From Candidatus Omnitrophota bacterium (GTDB lineage: Bacteria > Omnitrophota > Gorgyraeia > B26-G9), in NCBI GenBank assembly GCA_043805415.1, contig JAZDHZ010000033.1, positions 25,600 through 89,599 on the forward strand: a stretch of DNA of 64,000 nt, read 5' to 3'. This document shows, one piece after another, positions 2,438 through 55,531 of this stretch. How positions within the stretch are numbered: position 1 is the first letter of the stretch; each line of letters opens with the position of its first letter. Both the position numbers and the translations under genes were made by a program. The notes beneath the pieces were generated by a model, which was not told the origin of the DNA, did no database searches, and saw only the letters and a list, made by a program, of their open reading frames with translations.

Positions 2438-2561
2438 GGAACCTAGTATAGCAAGTTTTGCTTAAAACGTCTAATTGTTTAGATTAAAAATTTATTGGAA
2501 AGCAGGGGAAGCCTGAAAAAGGAAAATAAATAGGTGTCTGTCCCCAGCATAAATAAATAGC

Positions 2562-2590
2562 TGTAATTATGAGCAGAAATTTGATATAAT
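2562..2590 (+). promoter_or_regulatory. Candidate sigma70 promoter with extended -10 (TGaTATAAT) upstream of hisH-like gene
   Basis: TGATATAAT at 2582-2590 in the divergent intergenic region. The -35 is weak, but an extended -10 compensates. Confidence 0.4.
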
Positions 2591-2636
2591 TATCTCCTGA
2601 TATTTTTCGAATAACTCAAAACCATAAGTGAAGATA

Positions 2637-3266
2637 ATGATAGCAATTATTGATTACAAAATGGGTAATGTGCGCAGCGTGGCCAAAGCTTTTGAGTCTC
2701 TTGGGGCAAAAGTGGAAGTAACTGCCAGCAAAACCAAGCTAGCTAAAGCTAATGCCCTTGTTTTGCCTGGGGTAGGGGCATTCTCAGCTGGAATGAAAAA
2801 CCTGAGAAAAATGGAGCTTATTTCGGAAATTAAAAAAGCAGTTGCTCTTGATAAACCATTCTTAGGAATATGCTTGGGACAGCAGCTATTGTTTAGTCAA
2901 AGCTTTGAACACGGCAAGCACAAAGGCCTGGATATTATTTCCGGAGAAGTGGTTATGTTTAAACCCGGGCTTAAGATTCCGCACATGGGGTGGAATACGA
3001 TAATGCAAGACGCAAGACACAAGACACAAGACACAAGCGGATTGTTGAAGGGCGTGCCGAATGGGAGTTATTTTTATTTTGTGCATTCTTATTATGTAAA
3101 ACCAGTAAGTAAAAAGTGTATCATTGCTATCACAGAATACGGCCAGAAATTTGCCAGTATTGTCGGACAAGGTAATACTTTCGGCATTCAGTTCCATCCG
3201 GAAAAGAGTTCGGATATGGGGCTTAAAATTCTCGAGAACTTTTGTCGGATCGCTGGAGAGATATGA
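2637..3266 (+). CDS. hisH: Imidazole glycerol phosphate synthase HisH-like glutamine amidotransferase (class I GATase); probably WbuY/HisH2-type glycan amidation subunit
   Basis: MIAIIDYKMGNVRSV...LVLPGVGAF...GICLGQQLL...GIQFHPEKS, the canonical HisH signature. ATG 2637 is preferred over GTG 2628. The gene contains an in-frame heptamer repeat insertion (QDARHKTQDTSG). Confidence 0.85.
   Translation: MIAIIDYKMGNVRSVAKAFESLGAKVEVTASKTKLAKANALVLPGVGAFSAGMKNLRKMELISEIKKAVALDKPFLGICLGQQLLFSQSFEHGKHKGLDIISGEVVMFKPGLKIPHMGWNTIMQDARHKTQDTSGLLKGVPNGSYFYFVHSYYVKPVSKKCIIAITEYGQKFASIVGQGNTFGIQFHPEKSSDMGLKILENFCRIAGEI
3006..3037 (+). repeat. Heptanucleotide tandem repeat (CAAGACA)x~4.5 inside hisH coding sequence
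   Basis: Direct reading gives caagacg caagaca caagaca caagaca caag. The 7 nt period is not a multiple of 3. Confidence 0.9.
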
Positions 3267-3270
3267 AAAA

Positions 3271-3294
3271 GGGTGTAGGGGATAGGGTTTAGGG
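3271..3294 (+). other. G-quadruplex-forming motif / telomere-like G-tract cluster (GGGTGTAGGGGATAGGGTTTAGGG) in hisH-hisF spacer
   Basis: Four G3+ tracts with 3-4 nt loops on the coding (mRNA) strand. This is unusual in an AT-rich sequence. Confidence 0.5.
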
Positions 3295-3336
3295 ATTAGG
3301 AAAAACTAAAATTTTAAAAATTTATAATTTATAAAA

Positions 3337-3364
3337 CTTGTGACTTGTGTCCTGTGGCTTGTGA
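3337..3364 (+). repeat. Heptanucleotide tandem repeat (CTTGTGN)x4 in hisF leader (reverse complement of NCACAAG)
   Basis: Direct reading gives cttgtga cttgtgt cctgtgg cttgtga. It lies between the G-rich motif and the RBS GGAGAG of hisF. Confidence 0.9.
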
Positions 3365-3381
3365 CGCGAACGGAGAGAGCA

Positions 3382-4167
3382 ATGCTGGCAAAACGTATTA
3401 TTCCCTGTCTGGATGTTAAAGACGGCAGAGTGGTTAAGGGAATTAATTTTCTTAATTTAAAAGATGCCGGAGATCCGGTTGAACAGGCGGCAATGTATAG
3501 CCGTGAGGGAGCGGATGAGGTTGTGTTTTTAGATATTACCGCAAGTTCTGACCATCGTAAAACTATGCTCGATGTGGTTAAAAGAACCGCGGAACAGGTA
3601 TTTATTCCGTTTACAGTTGGCGGCGGTATCCGCAAACTATCAGACATTGAGCTGATTTTACGCAAAGGCGCGGACAAGGTTTCTTTAAACACCGCGGCAG
3701 TTAAAAATCCTCAGCTAATCAAACGGGCCGCGAGAAAATTCGGCAATCAGTGTATCGTAGTCGCTGTGGATGCCAAAAGAAGGCCATTAGCTATGAGCCA
3801 TGAGCTATCAGCTAGCAAGTGGGAAGTCTATATTTACGGCGGTAGAGAACCTACGGGTATTGATGTGATTGAGTGGGTTAAAAAAGTCGAGTCCTTGGGC
3901 GCTGGTGAAATCCTGTTAACCAGTATGGATAAAGACGGCACGCAATCCGGCTATGATCTTGAGTTGACCAGGGCAGTGTGCGAGGCAGTGAATATTCCGG
4001 TTATTGCCTCTGGCGGCGCGGGAACTTTGGAACATTTATATGATGGCTTGTCTAAAGGCAGAGCAGACGCGGTTTTAGCAGCTTCTATATTTCACTATGG
4101 AAAGTACAAGATTCAACAGACCAAAGCGTATTTAGCGCGTAAAGGCTTGCATATGCGCTGTAAATAA
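3382..4167 (+). CDS. hisF: Imidazole glycerol phosphate synthase cyclase subunit HisF-like (WbuZ/HisF2-type glycosyl amidation-associated)
   Basis: [20 protein letters not shown]...[11 protein letters not shown]...VGGGIR, plus a C-terminal GAD/SIFH motif. RBS GGAGAG lies 6 nt upstream of ATG 3382. The GTG 3340 extension would run through the heptamer repeat. Confidence 0.85.
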
Positions 4168-4249: not shown

Positions 4250-5068
4250 ATGCTAAATAAAAAAACAGAAAAAAAACTAAATAGTCTTAGAAACACACTT
4301 AGCTCTATGCAAAGCGTGGTTGTTGCTTTTTCCGGAGGCATAGACAGTACTTTATTATTAAAAGTCAGCTATGATGTTTTGCATAAAAATGTCTTGGCTG
4401 TTATTGTTTCGTCAGCTTTTTTAACTAAACAAGAACTGGATTTCGCGCTTAAGACAGTTAAAAAAATAGGCTGCGCGTATAAAGTTATAAACCTGGATAT
4501 TCTTAAAAACAGTAAAATCATTAAAAACCCTAAAAACAGATGCTATATATGCAAAAAGCAGATTATGAGCGAATTGCTCAAAATCGCTAAAACCAATAAG
4601 CTTAAGCATGTAATCGAAGGCTCAAACTTTGATGATTTAAGCCAATACAGGCCTGGCAAGCAGGCATTGCAGGAATTAGGAATCAGCTCTCCCTTGGCTG
4701 AGGTGAAGTTTAGAAAGCCGGAAATCAGGCAGGTTTTAAAAACCTGTGACTTTGCTAATTGGGATATTCCTTCATCGAGTTGTTTAGCTACCCGTTTTGC
4801 CTATGGAACAGTTTTGAATAATATTGACCTGGAAGCAGTTGCTTGCGCGGAAGCTCTTATTAAGTCGTTGGGATTTAAACAAGTCAGGGTACGGATGCAT
4901 GAACGTATTGCCAGGATTGAGGTTAGCAAAGATAAAATTAAACAATTAGTTAAAATCCTGGATAAAAAATTAATTATTAAACTTAAAAAATTAGGGTTTA
5001 GCCGTATTTGCATTGATCTTGAGGGATATCGCAGCGGAAGTATGGATAATATTGCAATTAATCCATAA
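4250..5068 (+). CDS. PP-loop ATP pyrophosphatase, LarE/TIGR00268-like (candidate sugar amidotransferase or sulfur-transferase partner of HisH/HisF)
   Basis: SGGIDS PP-loop motif near the N-terminus, and a conserved Cys in SSCLATRF that matches the LarE sacrificial cysteine context. Confidence 0.6.
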   Translation: MLNKKTEKKLNSLRNTLSSMQSVVVAFSGGIDSTLLLKVSYDVLHKNVLAVIVSSAFLTKQELDFALKTVKKIGCAYKVINLDILKNSKIIKNPKNRCYICKKQIMSELLKIAKTNKLKHVIEGSNFDDLSQYRPGKQALQELGISSPLAEVKFRKPEIRQVLKTCDFANWDIPSSSCLATRFAYGTVLNNIDLEAVACAEALIKSLGFKQVRVRMHERIARIEVSKDKIKQLVKILDKKLIIKLKKLGFSRICIDLEGYRSGSMDNIAINP

Positions 5069-5131
5069 ACTTTTATCAAGAAGCTAATTTTAATTTAACT
5101 ATTTTAACTCTAGTATGTTATGGTGATTGGA

Positions 5132-5160
5132 TTGACATATTTATCCGACGGTGGTAAAAT
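5132..5160 (+). promoter_or_regulatory. Candidate sigma70 promoter TTGACA-17-TAAAAT
   Basis: Consensus -35 TTGACA (5132-5137), a 17 nt spacer and TAAAAT (5155-5160), about 40 nt upstream of the flippase gene. Confidence 0.5.
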
Positions 5161-5198
5161 GCTTTTTTAGATATAAATCAAGAAAAGAACCATGAATA

Positions 5199-6458
5199 AT
5201 GAAGAAAAAATCATTTATAAAAAATGCCGGCATAATGTTTTTTGCCACAACATTGACTGGCATCTTTAATCTGCTTTACCAGCTATTTATGGTTCGGGCT
5301 CTGAGTCCGGTTGATTTTGGTTTATTAGATAAATTATTGGGATTAACGATAATTACTACTATGCCCACCGGAACTTTACAGGCAGTTGTAATTAAGTTCA
5401 TTGCTAGTTTTAAAGCAGAAAAAAAATATAGCAATATTCGGGCTTTTTTACGTTTATTTTTAAGCAAACTAGTGGTAGTGGGAATGGGGATATTGCTTGT
5501 TTTTGTTATCTTTCGTTCGGCTATTGGTGCTTATTATAAAACTGATAATGATTTGCTAATTATTATTGTTGGAGTCTTATTGTTTGTTTCAACAGTATTT
5601 CCTTTGACCTCAGGGGCTTTGCAAGGGCTGGAGAAATTTAAAAGTTTAGGAACAGCTTCTATCGCGAACAGTTTATTAAGATTTGGTTTAGGAGTATTGC
5701 TGGTTAAATTAGGATTCAGCGTTGGCGGAGCTTTAACAGCGCTTATTATAGCTGGAGTAGTGACTTTTCTTATTGCTTTTATACCTTTACGCAAGTATTT
5801 TTTCTTTAGACCGGATTCCGATGAGCAGGATTTGAATGAAAGCCTTGATTTAAGAGATATTGTTAAGTATTGTTTTCCGGCTTTTATTGCTCTTTTTAGC
5901 TTTGGTTTATTAACTAATATGGATTTGCAGTTAATCAGCCCTTATTTCTCCGTGGAAGACGCGGGATATTTTGCTGTAGCTCGGATGATTGGCAAGATAA
6001 TCCTATATTTGCCGGGAGCTGTGACAATTGTGATGTTTCCGAAAATAGCCGCTGAACACACGCAAAATAAGGATACAACCGGTACGCTTAAAAAAAGCTT
6101 GCTGGTTGTGGGGATAATGTGTTGTGTTGCCGGAGCCATATGTATTATGTTTCCTGATTTTATGCTTAAAGCGCTTGCCGGAGCAGTATATCCGCAATGC
6201 ATTCCTTTGGTTATGCCTTTTGTGATCAGCATGAGTTTTTATGCATTATGTAGTGTATTTTTATATTACTATTTGTCAGTACATAATATGAAATTTATTT
6301 ATATCGCAGGAGTGTTTGTTTTTGTCCAGGCAGGATTAATAAGATTTTTTCATAATAGCTTAATTCAGGTAATGTATATGGTTTGTTTTTGCGCGATTGC
6401 ATTGTTTTTAATTAATGTTTTAGGATTAAAAAAGAGTAAAAAAGCACGCGCAAATTAA
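5199..6458 (+). CDS. Polysaccharide biosynthesis protein / Wzx-like oligosaccharide flippase (MOP superfamily)
   Basis: About 12 predicted TM helices and a typical Wzx N-terminus (lysine-rich start, hydrophobic segments). Confidence 0.65.
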   Translation: MKKKSFIKNAGIMFFATTLTGIFNLLYQLFMVRALSPVDFGLLDKLLGLTIITTMPTGTLQAVVIKFIASFKAEKKYSNIRAFLRLFLSKLVVVGMGILLVFVIFRSAIGAYYKTDNDLLIIIVGVLLFVSTVFPLTSGALQGLEKFKSLGTASIANSLLRFGLGVLLVKLGFSVGGALTALIIAGVVTFLIAFIPLRKYFFFRPDSDEQDLNESLDLRDIVKYCFPAFIALFSFGLLTNMDLQLISPYFSVEDAGYFAVARMIGKIILYLPGAVTIVMFPKIAAEHTQNKDTTGTLKKSLLVVGIMCCVAGAICIMFPDFMLKALAGAVYPQCIPLVMPFVISMSFYALCSVFLYYYLSVHNMKFIYIAGVFVFVQAGLIRFFHNSLIQVMYMVCFCAIALFLINVLGLKKSKKARAN

Positions 6459-51642: not shown

Positions 51643-52419
51643 ATGAAAAATATAGAAGGAAAGAAAATATCAATAATAATGCCTGCCTATAATGAAGCAG
51701 ACAGGATCGTTGAAAGTCTTAAAGAAACTATGAAGACTTTTGACGATTTTAAAGCTAATTATGAAATAATAGTTGTTGATGACGGCTCAAGCGATCAAAC
51801 TTATGAGAAAACCAAGAAATTCGCACAGGATATCAGTAATGGCAAAATAATTGTTCAGCGTAACCGTGCTAATTACGGTAAAGGTAGAGCTTTGTATAAA
51901 GGGTTTCGCTATGCTACTGGAGATTTTATTATATTTCTTGACGCGGATATGGACTTGCATCCCGGACAGATAGATACATTTTTTGATCTTATGGAACTGA
52001 CTGACAGCGATATTGTAATCGGTTCTAAGCGGCATCCTAATTCAAAATTATTCTATCCCAAGGACCGTAGGATTTTGAGCGCAGGATATTTCTTTCTTGT
52101 AAAGATACTTTTTGGTTTGCCGATTAACGACACTCAAACAGGACTAAAACTGTTTAAAGCTCATGTTTTAAAGGCAGTTTTTAAGGAGTTTATCAGTAGA
52201 GAATTTGCTTTTGATCTGGAGCTTTTAGTAACCGCGCATAGATTTGGCTTTAAAATCGCGGAAGCACCTGTGTGTATTAATTCACAGAGAGGATATAATC
52301 GGATTGGGATAGGAACTGTATATAAAATGACTATTGATACTTTGGGAATTTATGCGCGTTTTCTGCGTAATAAAACTAAAAAACTGACATCAAAAATTAA
52401 AAGAAAAATAAAAAAATGA
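51643..52419 (+). CDS. Family 2 glycosyltransferase (DPM1-like, soluble)
   Basis: ISIIMPAYNEADRI...IIVVDDGSSDQT...LDADMD. Confidence 0.75.
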   Translation: MKNIEGKKISIIMPAYNEADRIVESLKETMKTFDDFKANYEIIVVDDGSSDQTYEKTKKFAQDISNGKIIVQRNRANYGKGRALYKGFRYATGDFIIFLDADMDLHPGQIDTFFDLMELTDSDIVIGSKRHPNSKLFYPKDRRILSAGYFFLVKILFGLPINDTQTGLKLFKAHVLKAVFKEFISREFAFDLELLVTAHRFGFKIAEAPVCINSQRGYNRIGIGTVYKMTIDTLGIYARFLRNKTKKLTSKIKRKIKK

Positions 52420-53429
52420 GTAATCTATCAGTAGCGATTATAATTCCGGTTAAGTGTTTTAATGATAATTTAAAAAAGTCTATGGAAGAATGCCTTAAGC
52501 TTGATTATCCAAACTTTGAAGTGCTTGTTTTTCCCGATGAAATAAGCGAGGGATTTATTCCTTTTAAGGGAAAAATTAAAGTTATTCCCACTGGCAGTAT
52601 GGGCCCGGCTTTAAAAAGGGATATGGCGGTTGAGCATTCAAAAGCGGATATATTTGCTTTTTTAGATGATGATGCTTATCCAGAGCCTGATTGGTTGAAG
52701 AATGCAGTAAAACACTTTAAACAACAGGAAATAGCTGCTGTTGGCGGGCCGTCGGTAACACCCCCTGAAAGCACTTTTGCTGGTATGGCAAGCGGTTATG
52801 CTTTTGCTTCACTTACGGTTTCCGGCCCATATACATATCGCTATGTTCCAGGCAATAAAATTATGAAAGTAGATGATTATCCATCCTGCAATTTTCTGGT
52901 GCGTAGGGAAATATTCGCAAAACTGGGCGGTTTTGATAGCAGTTTTTATCCAGGAGAAGACACAAAACTTTGCTTGGAAATTACGAAAAAATTAAATAAA
53001 AAAATAATTTATGATCCGGATGTTCTGGTTTATCATCATCGTCGGGATTCTTTAAACAGGCATATAAAGCAGATAGAAAATTATGCTACTCATCGCGGTA
53101 ATTTTGCCAAGCGATTTCCGGAAACATCCCGGAAAATTGCATATTTTGTCCCCAGCTTATTTGTCGGATTGCTTGTTAGCGGAGCAGGATGGTCTTTGAT
53201 ATCGCCTGTGCTAAAATCTGTCTATTTATGCTGTATATTGCTTTATTTAGCGATTATCGCGGCGAATGCCGCGTGGGTGCTGCTGATGGATAAAAAAGTT
53301 TCTTTTTTTAAGAAGCTTTTACTGCTTATCCCGGTTATTGTATTTATTGTTGTTACTCATATTACTTATGGCATATTTTTCATTAAAGGTATTTTTTTAA
53401 AACAATTAAAAGAAGAAAAGAGTAAATGA
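52416..53429 (+). CDS. Family 2 glycosyltransferase with C-terminal TM helices
   Basis: VAIIIPVKCFNDNL...FLDDDAYPEPDW, with C-terminal hydrophobic segments. Confidence 0.7.
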   Translation: MSNLSVAIIIPVKCFNDNLKKSMEECLKLDYPNFEVLVFPDEISEGFIPFKGKIKVIPTGSMGPALKRDMAVEHSKADIFAFLDDDAYPEPDWLKNAVKHFKQQEIAAVGGPSVTPPESTFAGMASGYAFASLTVSGPYTYRYVPGNKIMKVDDYPSCNFLVRREIFAKLGGFDSSFYPGEDTKLCLEITKKLNKKIIYDPDVLVYHHRRDSLNRHIKQIENYATHRGNFAKRFPETSRKIAYFVPSLFVGLLVSGAGWSLISPVLKSVYLCCILLYLAIIAANAAWVLLMDKKVSFFKKLLLLIPVIVFIVVTHITYGIFFIKGIFLKQLKEEKSK

Positions 53430-53433
53430 ATTT

Positions 53434-53605
53434 CTAATTTCTAATTACTAATTGACCTAAAATAAATAAAAAAATAACTAATAAATTACTAATGGATCTA
53501 AAATTATTAAAAAAGAGTTTACTGAATAAAGTACTGATTGACTTAAAATAGATAAAAATAAAATAAGAGTTGAGTAAATTACTAATTATTAGTAGACCTA
53601 AAATG
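53434..53605 (+). repeat. Repeat-rich leader: (CTAATTN)x3 heptamer array followed by four degenerate ~45-bp tandem units (core TTACTAATNGACCTAAAAT) ending at the 4HB start codon
   Basis: CTAATT at 53434, 53441 and 53448. Unit cores start near 53446, 53494, 53533 and 53582. The last unit contains the ATG of the four-helix-bundle gene. Confidence 0.8.
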
Positions 53606-53962
53606 AATGAAAATAAAGATAAAAAGTATGATTTAGCTGAGCGTACTGCCAAATTTGGTGAGGAAATAGTTCGTTTTGCAAAGAGAGTAAAGACGGATAA
53701 TATTACCGTAACGATAATAAGACAGTTAGTAGCTGCAGGAACATCTGTTGGAGCGAATTATTGTGAAGCGGATGATGCGGAGTCTAAGAATGATTTTAAG
53801 CATAAAATTGGGATTTGTAAAAAAGAAGCGAGAGAAACTAAATATTGGTTAAGAATTGTATTAGTGACAAGTCCTGAGCTTGAAAAAGAAGCAAAAATAC
53901 TCTCTAATGAAGCAAAAGAACTGAATCTGATATTTAACGCGATAGTTAATAAGCTGAAATAA
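53603..53962 (+). CDS. Four-helix-bundle protein (TIGR02436 / 23S rRNA intervening-sequence protein family)
   Basis: KYDLAERTAKFGEEIVRF...RQLVAAGTSVGANYCEA...KHKIGICKKEARETKYWLRI is the canonical pattern of this family, and the size matches (about 120 aa). Confidence 0.8.
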   Translation: MNENKDKKYDLAERTAKFGEEIVRFAKRVKTDNITVTIIRQLVAAGTSVGANYCEADDAESKNDFKHKIGICKKEARETKYWLRIVLVTSPELEKEAKILSNEAKELNLIFNAIVNKLK

Positions 53963-53986
53963 TTTTGACATTGGTAATTATTTAGA

Positions 53987-54013
53987 AATTAGATTAATTA
54001 GGTTAATTAGATC
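53987..54013 (+). repeat. (AATTAGNNN)x3 array, inverse complement of the CTAATT array upstream of the 4HB gene
   Basis: AATTAG at 53987, 53996 and 54005 with a 9-bp period. Together with 53434-53453 it forms inverted hexamer arrays that bracket the 4HB gene. Confidence 0.7.
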
Positions 54014-54037
54014 AATTGAGGAAAGTGTAATCAAAAT

Positions 54038-55531
54038 ATGAAGGTAATAATTTCTTATCCGCCATTAAATAAAGAAAAGGGAACGCCTTTACTTTCTCAG
54101 AATAGGCAGTTTCAATATTTTAAAGATCCGACTTATATTTATCCGGTTGTTCCAGCGCAAGCGGCATCACTGCTTAAACGGGAAGGATTTGATGTTATCT
54201 GGAATGATTGTATTGCCATGGACTGGGAGTATCAGCGGTTTATCGAGTTCATAAACAATGAAAAACCTGATATTATAGCAATGGAAACAAAGACACCTGT
54301 TGTTAAAGAACACTGGAAAATCATCAACGACATTAAAAGACTATCGACCATTGACTATCGACCATTGACTGTTTTATTCGGCGACCATGTTACCGCAATG
54401 CCTGAGGAATCAATGCAAAATTGCCAGGTTGATTTTGTGCTAACAGGAGGTGACTATGATTTTCTGTTGTTAAATTTGTGTAATGCATTAAAAGCCACAA
54501 GCCACAAGCCGCAAGCCGCAAGCATAAAGGATAAATTAGAGCAGGGCATTTGGTATAGGAAAACAGGACAGATAAAAAACACAGGGAAGTTTGAACTGAA
54601 ACATGATCTTAATACTCTTCCGTTTATTGACCGCGATTTAACCCAGTGGAAATCATACGCTTATAAAAATGGTAATTACAGAAAAACTCCGGGAACTTAT
54701 ATTATGAGCGCACGGGATTGCTGGTGGGGGACGTGCACTTTCTGTTCCTGGCCCCAACTTTTTCCTGAATTTAGAAGCCGAAATCCGGAAAATGTGCTGG
54801 ATGAGATCGAGCTGTTGGTGGATAAATTTCAGGTTAAGGAAATAATGGATGATTCCGGGACATTTCCTGTGGGGAAATGGCTGAAAGAATTTTGTTTGGG
54901 AATGATTGACCGGGGTTTGCATAAAAAAGTTACGCTTGATTGCAATATGCGTTTTGGCGCTTTGAGCTTTGAAGAATATAAATTGATGCAAAAAGCCGGT
55001 TTTCGTTTCCTTCTCTTTGGTATTGAGTCAGCTAATCAAAAAACGCTTGATAAGATAAAGAAGGGTCTAAAAGTAGAAGACATTATCCCGAGCTGTAAAG
55101 ATGCCAGACGCGCAGGGCTTTATCCGCATATTACCATAATGTTCGGCTATCCCTGGGAATCCTATGAAGATGCCCAAAATACCCTTAAACTGGGGAAATT
55201 CTTATTAAAAAAAGATTATGCTTATACCATGCAGTCAACAGTGGTTGTGCCTTATCCGGGAACTCCTTTATTCGAAGAATGCAAGGCTAATGACCTTTTA
55301 TACAGCACGAATTGGGAAGATTATGACATGAAGTGTCCGTTAATGAAAACAGATTTTTCCAAGGAAAAGCTTTTACAGCTTGTCCAGAGCCTTTATTCTG
55401 TCAGCTATTCCCCGGAATTTGTGGCCAGGAAAATTCTTAGCATTAGAGAGTTTGATGATATAAAATATTTCGGCCGGGCGTTCATGAAAGTTGCTGGGCA
55501 TATATTTGATTTTAAAAAGAAAAAAGCGTGA
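54038..55531 (+). CDS. B12-binding radical SAM enzyme with atypical CX4CX2C cluster motif and in-frame heptamer-repeat insertion
   Basis: N-terminal B12-binding-like domain, then DCWWGTCTFCSW. The repeat-encoded KATSHKPQAASIKD segment lies between the two domains. Confidence 0.65.
   Translation: MKVIISYPPLNKEKGTPLLSQNRQFQYFKDPTYIYPVVPAQAASLLKREGFDVIWNDCIAMDWEYQRFIEFINNEKPDIIAMETKTPVVKEHWKIINDIKRLSTIDYRPLTVLFGDHVTAMPEESMQNCQVDFVLTGGDYDFLLLNLCNALKATSHKPQAASIKDKLEQGIWYRKTGQIKNTGKFELKHDLNTLPFIDRDLTQWKSYAYKNGNYRKTPGTYIMSARDCWWGTCTFCSWPQLFPEFRSRNPENVLDEIELLVDKFQVKEIMDDSGTFPVGKWLKEFCLGMIDRGLHKKVTLDCNMRFGALSFEEYKLMQKAGFRFLLFGIESANQKTLDKIKKGLKVEDIIPSCKDARRAGLYPHITIMFGYPWESYEDAQNTLKLGKFLLKKDYAYTMQSTVVVPYPGTPLFEECKANDLLYSTNWEDYDMKCPLMKTDFSKEKLLQLVQSLYSVSYSPEFVARKILSIREFDDIKYFGRAFMKVAGHIFDFKKKKA
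54331..54358 (+). repeat. 14-bp (2x7) perfect tandem duplication CTATCGACCATTGA x2 inside radical SAM gene
   Basis: Read directly from the sequence. It encodes STIDYRPLTV. Confidence 0.9.
54493..54520 (+). repeat. Heptanucleotide tandem repeat (AAGCCRC)x4 (= CCRCAAG register) inside radical SAM gene
   Basis: aagccac aagccac aagccgc aagccgc. It shares the CACAAG core with the hisH and hisF-leader repeats. Confidence 0.9.

Follow-up and report, generated by a model that had tools for sequence, protein, structure and literature searches.

The closest described relatives of the element reported here are the intervening sequences (IVSs) of 23S rRNA that carry an S23p open reading frame (ORF), as in Coxiella burnetii and Leptospira (PMC4990558). 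The Coxiella IVS has a 28-bp terminal stem that is cut by RNase III, and two to three tandem heptamers (GACAGAT), whose number varies between strains, stand just before the ATG of its S23p ORF; the functionality and origin of IVSs were described as still unclear (PMC4990558). For both the rRNA IVSs and the S23p ORF, questions of origin and function have stood since the early 1990s. A related fold is found in Avd of the diversity-generating retroelements (DGRs), a family known to form pentamers; in the structure of the DGR ribonucleoprotein (PDB 8UB7), Avd is bound to RNA and to reverse transcriptase. In the present study we analysed a 64-kb stretch of a Candidatus Omnitrophota genome (contig JAZDHZ010000033.1; the whole stretch is called the window below), in which a small four-helix-bundle (4HB) gene of the S23p type, bracketed by mirror-image repeat arrays, stands between two genes of a glycan cluster. 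Two further classes of element enter the comparison. Miniature inverted-repeat transposable elements (MITEs) and other small palindromic elements, e.g. the Rickettsia palindromic elements and the Neisseria Correia elements, insert between or within genes and are co-transcribed with them, and the short tandemly repeated repetitive (STRR) sequences of cyanobacteria are heptanucleotide tandem repeats dispersed in intergenic and coding DNA; to our knowledge, STRRs have not been found to bracket a gene. We consider that the window element is probably, though by no means certainly, a gene-sized selfish cassette of the 23S rRNA IVS type that resides inside an mRNA operon.

An insertion at the junction of two glycan genes

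The cassette extends from about position 53430 to about position 54017 of the window, on the forward (+) strand like all features described in this section, and consists of a left array, a 4HB ORF whose ATG falls within the innermost part of this array, and a right array in mirror image. The left array, the outer end of the cassette (53430–53460), contains CTAATT at 53434, 53441 and 53448, i.e. at a 7-nt spacing, and then GACCTAAAAT; Tandem Repeats Finder (TRF) recorded 3.6 copies of AATTTCT at 53429–53453, and the array presents stops in all three frames of both strands. The 4HB gene (53603–53962) starts at the ATG at 53603, ends with the stop at 53960–53962 and encodes a protein of 119 amino acids (aa) with the S23p/23S rRNA IVS protein/Avd-like fold. 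The TTG at 53570, which the ORF finder had given as the start, was rejected because close homologues all begin at the ATG. Behind the stop lies an inner right arm, TTTTGACATTGGTAATTATTTAG (53963–53986), the counterpart of the stretch that, in relatives, complements the region around the start codon, and then the right array (53987–54017), made of 3.4 copies of AATTAGNNN with AATTAG at 53987, 53996 and 54005 (TRF period 9), the inverse complement of the left-array units. Arms at 53433–53447 and 53979–53993 are 93% complementary, and those at 53448–53460 and 53998–54010 are 92% complementary. A preliminary description of this locus, made from the sequence alone, had reported three CTAATT upstream and three AATTAG downstream as inverse complements of each other, and all six were found where it had placed them.

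The left neighbour, GT2b (52416–53429), encodes a family 2 glycosyltransferase (GT2; PF00535, 57.7 bits) and ends with a TGA that lies within an ATGA at 53426–53429. On the right, a short spacer leads to the start of the radical S-adenosylmethionine gene rSAM (54018–54041), where an ATGA at 54038–54041 repeats that at the GT2b stop; rSAM itself (54038–55531) encodes a B12-binding radical SAM enzyme (PF04055 and PF02310). Both neighbours belong to a long same-strand glycan cluster with genes for an epimerase/dehydratase, a Wzy-like ligase, several GT2 and GT1 glycosyltransferases and a methyltransferase.

To compare this junction in relatives, we used 80 loci retrieved from 169 confirmed radical SAM relatives (60–88% identical), almost all of them labelled Candidatus Omnitrophota. 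The GT2a–GT2b–rSAM order is a triad conserved across the 80 loci, and GT2b directly adjoins rSAM in approximately 70 of them, with a gap of 0–50 bp and often with an overlapping ATGA; the empty junctions of L002, L046, L038 and L021, for example, read ..ATGA.., the GT2b stop overlapping the rSAM start. The same 4HB gene is present at the same junction only in the closest relatives, L001/L082 (96% aa identity), L081 (97%) and L171 (84%). Because GT2b and rSAM abut in most relatives, these data show that the 4HB cassette is an insertion at the stop/start junction of two otherwise adjacent genes, as the preliminary description had supposed when it proposed looking for this adjacency in relatives. 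ATGA stands at both junctions in the window and in L171, and AATGA at both junctions in L121; in the window and L171 the paired ATGA is compatible with a duplicated ancestral overlapping stop/start.

The arrays are part of the inserted unit. The pattern CTAAT-N2-4-CTAAT has four matches in the window, against 1.18 expected, all of them in the two cassette flanks, and a triple-CTAAT pattern was found in only one of the 80 Omnitrophota loci, the carrier of the same cassette. Because it is absent from the other 79, we assign the arrays to the cassette and not to the host genome. That the flank repeats might be common AT-rich low-complexity sequence, a possibility raised at the outset, is answered by this confinement to the cassette flanks in the window and in the Omnitrophota loci.

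The same junction has received other inserts. L007 carries a 44%-identical 4HB gene with (AATAACC)n upstream and (GGTTATT)n downstream, and L003 a very divergent, C-terminally truncated 4HB gene with (ATAAAGTT/TGAAAGTT)n upstream and (AACTTTAT)n downstream. Three 4HB subfamilies are therefore represented at one junction, each with a mirrored repeat of its own, i.e. CTAATT in the window, AATAACC/GGTTATT in L007 and AAAGTT/AACTTT in L003. In addition, L064 holds a PIN/VapB toxin–antitoxin pair at this position (5192–5896), L006 an AbiEii toxin gene with a partner gene (2439–3870) and L042 an epimerase gene (4957–5991). Small modules have landed repeatedly at the GT2b/rSAM junction. A narrow hidden Markov model built from three sequences missed the divergent 4HB genes, and a broader, iterated profile was used instead; across the 80 loci it detected only five 4HB genes, three of them at the junction and one directly after the radical SAM gene.

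The cassette family and its protein

Relatives of the 4HB protein number more than 7,995 in the database, thousands of them at 65–75% identity, and those with names come from Parcubacteria/Patescibacteria groups, Jacksonbacteria, Portnoybacteria and Omnitrophota; exact look-up of the window radical SAM and 4HB proteins found neither on record, and a search of viral contigs gave no relatives. To examine the surroundings of these genes, we assembled 80 metagenome loci that carry relatives of the window 4HB protein with 61–97% aa identity. Nearly all of them, including approximately 70 in unrelated contexts, share the array–ORF–array design, with CTAAT units running up to the ATG and their mirror image after the stop. 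Among the 73 non-redundant loci, the 70 nt before the ATG contain 3.41 CTAAT per locus vs 0.07 ATTAG, and the 100 nt after the stop 3.04 ATTAG vs 0.19 CTAAT. Successive units stand 7 nt apart in 54 cases and 9 nt apart in 85, with three to four units per array, and complementarity extends inwards, the post-stop ..GTCATTAGTCATTGGGATT.. mirroring the ..AATCCCAATGACTAATGAC.. of the start region. Inverted complementarity of the flanks exceeded that of shuffled sequences at z > 3 in 68 of 78 relatives. The array motif is conserved family-wide, including between members with saturated synonymous sites. The cassettes leave little intergenic space free: in the median, the upstream stop lies 9.5 nt before the first CTAAT and the downstream start 23 nt after the last ATTAG, and a screen of nearby ORFs in the metagenome relatives found only two loci without an ORF on one side. 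Neighbours mostly have the same orientation as the cassette (60 of 64 upstream and 52 of 64 downstream). Searches of the full-text literature gave no account of 4HB cassettes that are free-standing and have repeat arrays in mirror image.

The limits of the unit were given by two members of this set. The cassettes of L121 and L133 are 90% identical in DNA, their contexts have no similarity on either side, and the similarity runs from the first CTAAT of the left array to the last AATT of the right array; as read from these alignments, the comparison shows that the cassette moves as a discrete unit with the arrays as its ends. There are also miniatures of 110–140 bp without an ORF, in which a left array is followed by an ATG with a few codons, and these by the inner right arm and a right array. 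They were found in L107 (517–633), in L008 (1175–1269) and twice in L129 (4162–4274 and 5698–5830), where the pair lies beside a full copy on the same contig; further ORF-less miniatures are nested behind the 4HB stop in L097, L100 and L116. In L110 (3366–3779) an extra gene of the glyoxalase/vicinal oxygen chelate family (VOC; PF00903) stands between the 4HB stop and the right array. Other copies are decaying, that in L003 being truncated and those in L098 and L111 carrying in-frame stops. The preliminary description had spoken of a miniature mobile or homing insertion. Mobility is upheld by the L121/L133 pair, the miniatures and the roughly 70 relatives elsewhere; homing driven by an endonuclease is not, no nuclease and no general target-site duplication having been found.

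The 4HB protein scored 74.2 bits against TIGR02436 (cut-off 24) and 53.2 bits against PF05635 (cut-off 33.8), bearing out the initial assignment of a TIGR02436-type gene between a GT2 and a radical SAM gene, and it matched PDB 2RLD with E = 2e-15. An AlphaFold2 (AF2) monomer model, with a predicted local distance difference test score (pLDDT) of 92.6, has four helices at residues 11–27, 33–57, 62–89 and 91–117, and superposes on 2RLD and 2GSC with TM-scores of 0.80 and 0.81, and on the DGR protein Avd with 0.72 (8UB7_E) and 0.69 (4DWL). The homologues 2RLD and 2GSC have five chains each in their PDB entries, and 2GSC is a homopentamer (PMC4990558). The protein is basic, with an isoelectric point (pI) of 9.0. 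Among the four 4HB copies at this junction, the ratio of non-synonymous to synonymous substitution (dN/dS) is 0.07–0.16; these values show that the protein has been kept by purifying selection, and on this codon-level comparison it is evidently functional. The earlier suggestion of a selfish-element remnant does not fit a gene that is not decaying. A PADLOC scan for anti-phage defence systems matched 0 families.

Synonymous divergence changes abruptly at the cassette edges. Among the window, L001 and L081, the proportion of synonymous differences (pS) is 0.09–0.16 in the 4HB gene, as compared with 0.39–0.65 in the adjacent 95–100 codons of GT2b and rSAM, and is thus three to six times lower than in both flanks; against L171 the values are 0.36–0.40 for the 4HB gene and 0.60–0.76 for the flanking codons. 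Approximate Fisher tests of this contrast gave P values of 2e-13 (window vs L081), 7e-5 (window vs L001) and also 1e-3. The low pS may reflect horizontal replacement at this site, which would make the cassette younger than its flanks, or a constraint on the gene specific to this clade. RNA structure conserved inside the ORF was rejected as the cause because RNAalifold found only two invariant pairs across 40 homologues; in the same alignment third codon positions vary freely across the wider 4HB family.

Explanations for the mirrored arrays

In its anatomy the cassette resembles the 23S rRNA IVS with S23p ORF (PMC4990558) closely. The ORF belongs to the same family (PF05635/TIGR02436), terminal inverted repeats surround it and make a stem (a predicted one for the window cassette), tandem heptamers of variable copy number stand immediately before the ATG as in Coxiella, the ORF is without a good Shine–Dalgarno sequence and the element counts as selfish. 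The preliminary description was apt in drawing a link to rRNA IVSs, the Coxiella IVS sharing the ORF family, the terminal stem and the heptamers before the ATG. However, the cassette lies between two protein-coding genes of an operon and not in helix 25 or 45 of 23S rRNA, it has repeat arrays on both sides, which are themselves the inverted arms, and its protein is under purifying selection, whereas the Coxiella S23p is decaying and probably not made. Location alone keeps the cassette out of the IVS class, the other anatomical features tested being present. The likeness to Avd (PDB 4DWL and 8UB7) lies in the four-helix-bundle fold, with TM-scores of 0.69–0.77, but sequence identity is only approximately 10% and the neighbours of the cassette relatives are housekeeping genes. 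The cassette is probably not a DGR: Pfam scans of the ten annotated genes around it (48.4–59.4 kb) gave glycan-pathway enzymes only and detected no reverse transcriptase domain (template/variable repeats were not searched for).

The IVS-type reading, which we favour, would work as follows. The cassette would be transcribed by read-through within the operon, as we infer from the co-oriented, closely spaced neighbours and because a promoter/terminator scan found no excess over shuffled sequences and no signal placed to serve the 4HB gene. The two arrays would then pair into an interrupted stem of approximately 30 bp and close the ORF and its start codon into a loop. In minimum free energy (MFE) folds, at least 15 terminal pairs formed in 67 of 77 loci, with 33 in the window, where the folding z-score of the cassette RNA is −6.15 and that of the ORF alone −3.53. 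By analogy with rRNA IVSs, the stem might be cut by RNase III, so that the 4HB message would be released or insulated and the operon transcript split; more speculatively, a 4HB multimer could act on the three to five repeat units, for its own expression or for propagation of the cassette. Stops close all three frames of the left array in 59% of loci vs 13% of shuffles. A role of the arrays as three-frame stop barriers was rejected, the right array in the sense direction showing no difference (43% vs 32% of shuffles). An Rfam search of 52900–54600 gave no match.

A number of results weigh against this reading. The cassette RNA of L171 is not significantly structured (z = −1.66). G·U-type mismatches in the arms (126) are not in excess over A·C-type mismatches (151), a comparison in which the units can align out of register and which does not distinguish RNA-level pairing from inverted repeats at the DNA level. 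Left arms pair almost as well with the right arms of other loci (score 38.0) as with their own (40.3), and because arms of different loci are nearly equivalent in this respect, what the aligned sequences conserve is a mirrored motif vocabulary and not compensatory pairing specific to a locus. Read-through is not universal in the family, because some cassettes follow a divergently oriented gene (P0067 locus) or precede a convergent gene (P0110 locus). No transposase or nuclease was found, the only ORF of the window cassette being the 119-aa 4HB, and a family-wide longest-common-substring test for target-site duplication gave 5.02 vs 4.94 for flanks from different loci, i.e. no excess. Recent transposition was also sought in the form of identical proteins in different contexts, and P0050, P0110 and P0067 each occurred in a single context; because identical proteins always share one context across samples, movement of the cassette is not frequent. 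As a separate observation, 24 contigs from many samples have the identical P0050 protein (L161–L170) between PilB/T (T2SSE) and PilC (T2SSF); here a type IV pilus operon holds the cassette stably.

A mirrored motif of this kind fits recognition by a protein, whether a transposase or a 4HB multimer, as well as it fits a stem, and two alternatives follow these lines. In the first, which we regard as possible but unlikely, the cassette is a DNA transposon or MITE-like element, the arrays being terminal inverted repeats (TIRs) with subterminal sites for a transposase encoded elsewhere, the 4HB gene a passenger, the miniatures non-autonomous forms and RNA pairing incidental. As in transposons with TIRs, the cassette has terminal inverted repeats and discrete ends that are common to L121 and L133 in different contexts. 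The sharp boundaries at the arrays, the palindromic miniatures of 110–140 bp with several on one contig, the interchangeability of arms from different loci expected of protein-binding motifs, the lack of a G·U excess and the additional glyoxalase-family gene inside the arrays of L110 all point this way. MITEs and small palindromic elements likewise share with the cassette terminal inverted repeats, small size, flush intergenic insertion and ORF-less forms in several copies. Against it stand the negative family-wide test for target-site duplication and the fact that no transposase was seen in the window gene cluster or noticed near the retrieved loci. A passenger would, moreover, need to come from one conserved family in all the subfamilies although their repeats differ, and the strong sense co-orientation with neighbours is unexpected for cut-and-paste movement, although selection could yield it. 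The full-length cassette is not a classical MITE, because it carries a conserved non-transposase ORF; its arms consist of tandem 7/9-nt units, and no target-site duplication was detected.

In the second alternative the arrays would be operator-like binding sites, in RNA or DNA, for a 4HB multimer that would autoregulate its translation or protect the transcript, and the symmetry would reflect two platforms instead of a stem. The repeat motif changes together with the protein subfamily, each array has three to four units, where three to five per end would suit a ring of five subunits, the PDB entries of both solved homologues contain five chains, Avd in 8UB7 is bound to both RNA and reverse transcriptase, the protein is basic (pI 9.0) and, once more, the arms of different loci are interchangeable. 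However, co-variation of motif and protein would be equally expected from co-inheritance, and the miniatures retain the arrays without the protein. We hold this alternative to be doubtful too.

A broader proposal is offered only tentatively, namely that free-standing 4HB cassettes might be an unrecognized class of mobile elements, autonomous and of the size of a gene, that abound in both Patescibacteria and Omnitrophota. An Avd/S23p-like multimer would recognize the 7/9-nt arrays and drive or license propagation, possibly via a folded single-stranded or RNA intermediate; the miniatures would be non-autonomous, the rRNA IVSs a special case, and the low pS a result of repeated horizontal replacement at the same site. 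The window locus and its roughly 70 relatives show that an IVS-like design (an ORF, heptamer-type repeats at its start and an enclosing inverted stem) is widespread among ultra-small bacteria, where it forms a discrete, evidently functional cassette within ordinary operons. The family offers defined element ends, natural filled and empty sites, miniatures and a conserved protein whose binding to the repeats is open to direct test. For annotation, it matters that the cassettes part genes whose stop and start overlap elsewhere, and that they may fragment operon transcripts.

Finally, that the 4HB gene is an ordinary, vertically inherited small gene without any insertion, its flanks being AT-rich low complexity or promoter/terminator signals, is highly improbable: the genome is AT-rich, has heptamer arrays elsewhere in the window and has passed the gene on at the same site within the clade of the window, L001, L081 and L171, but the gene is absent from this junction in approximately 70 of 80 relatives, the CTAAT-array pattern occurs in the window only in the cassette flanks and is missing from the other Omnitrophota loci, unrelated contexts surround the closest protein relatives, which have these same flanks (many of the named ones are from Patescibacteria), promoter-like or terminator-like sites are not in excess, and both the presence/absence pattern and the L121/L133 comparison contradict it.

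The leader repeat and other tandem repeats

From the left array into the start of the gene, the window has four degenerate tandem leader units (53443–53618, + strand), which start at 53443, 53484, 53529 and 53584 (spacings of 41, 45 and 55 nt) and are 77–83% identical (TRF score 139). Each resembles the inner left array with the start codon and first codons, and the ATG is retained in the fourth unit only; four degenerate units resembling the start of the gene had been noted in the preliminary description, and the fourth is now seen to hold the real ATG. The number of copies differs among close relatives, with one in L171, two in L001, four in the window and five in L081. In L171 the single left array directly abuts the ATG, and in L001 the leader arose by a clean duplication of 107 bp, taking in the final bases of GT2b together with the eight initial codons of the 4HB gene. 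As read from the sequence, two direct repeats of similar, A/G-rich composition flank the duplicated segment, namely AAAGAAGAAAAGAGTAAATGA (GT2b end) and AAAGATAAAAAGTATGA (4HB codons 5–10). Because copy number varies and the units span the GT2b end, the left array and the first 4HB codons, these data show that the leader is a fast-evolving, lineage-specific tandem duplication that arose by slippage or unequal crossing-over. Of the two origins first suggested for the leader copies, slippage is therefore retained, and repeated insertion is rejected, the units holding the GT2b end and 5′ 4HB codons without any right-arm sequence. L086 has an independent partial duplication of the left cassette end.

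Heptamer arrays are also present elsewhere in the window, e.g. (CACAAGN)n at three sites, in which respect it resembles a genome with STRRs; the CTAATT arrays differ from STRRs in travelling with the 4HB cassette across phyla, as mirrored pairs. The (CACAAGN)n family has eight matches in the window vs 0 expected and is located in hisH (3004–3037), in the hisH–hisF spacer on the opposite strand (3337–3363) and in the region of rSAM that encodes loop 2 (54489–54522). The hisH and spacer arrays are 88% complementary over 25 nt, lie 299 nt apart and bracket the 3′ end of hisH. Just after hisH, at 3270–3300, there is an (AGGGNTT)x4 array that resembles the plant telomere repeat, and an in-frame GCCATGA/GCTATCA array lies inside hisF (3783–3814).

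In the window rSAM gene, two surface loops are encoded by in-frame tandem repeats, 2.3 copies of GACTATCGACCATT and 4.6 copies of AAGCCAC (54339–54370 and 54492–54523). TRF found arrays in 51 of the rSAM orthologues of the junction set (n = 78, L001–L080), with a period of 7 in 58 of 88 arrays; their positions cluster at aa 100–110 (33 arrays) and aa 150–170 (38 arrays), and the unit sequence depends on the lineage. These loops are the least conserved part of the gene, with 62–69% nucleotide identity between the window and L001 vs approximately 90%. In the rSAM gene of L042 (6001–7569), the same repeat-derived insert is present twice, as an almost identical 20-residue peptide, LSTFSAKGGSAxGGNFxLST, stands in each of the two variable loops.

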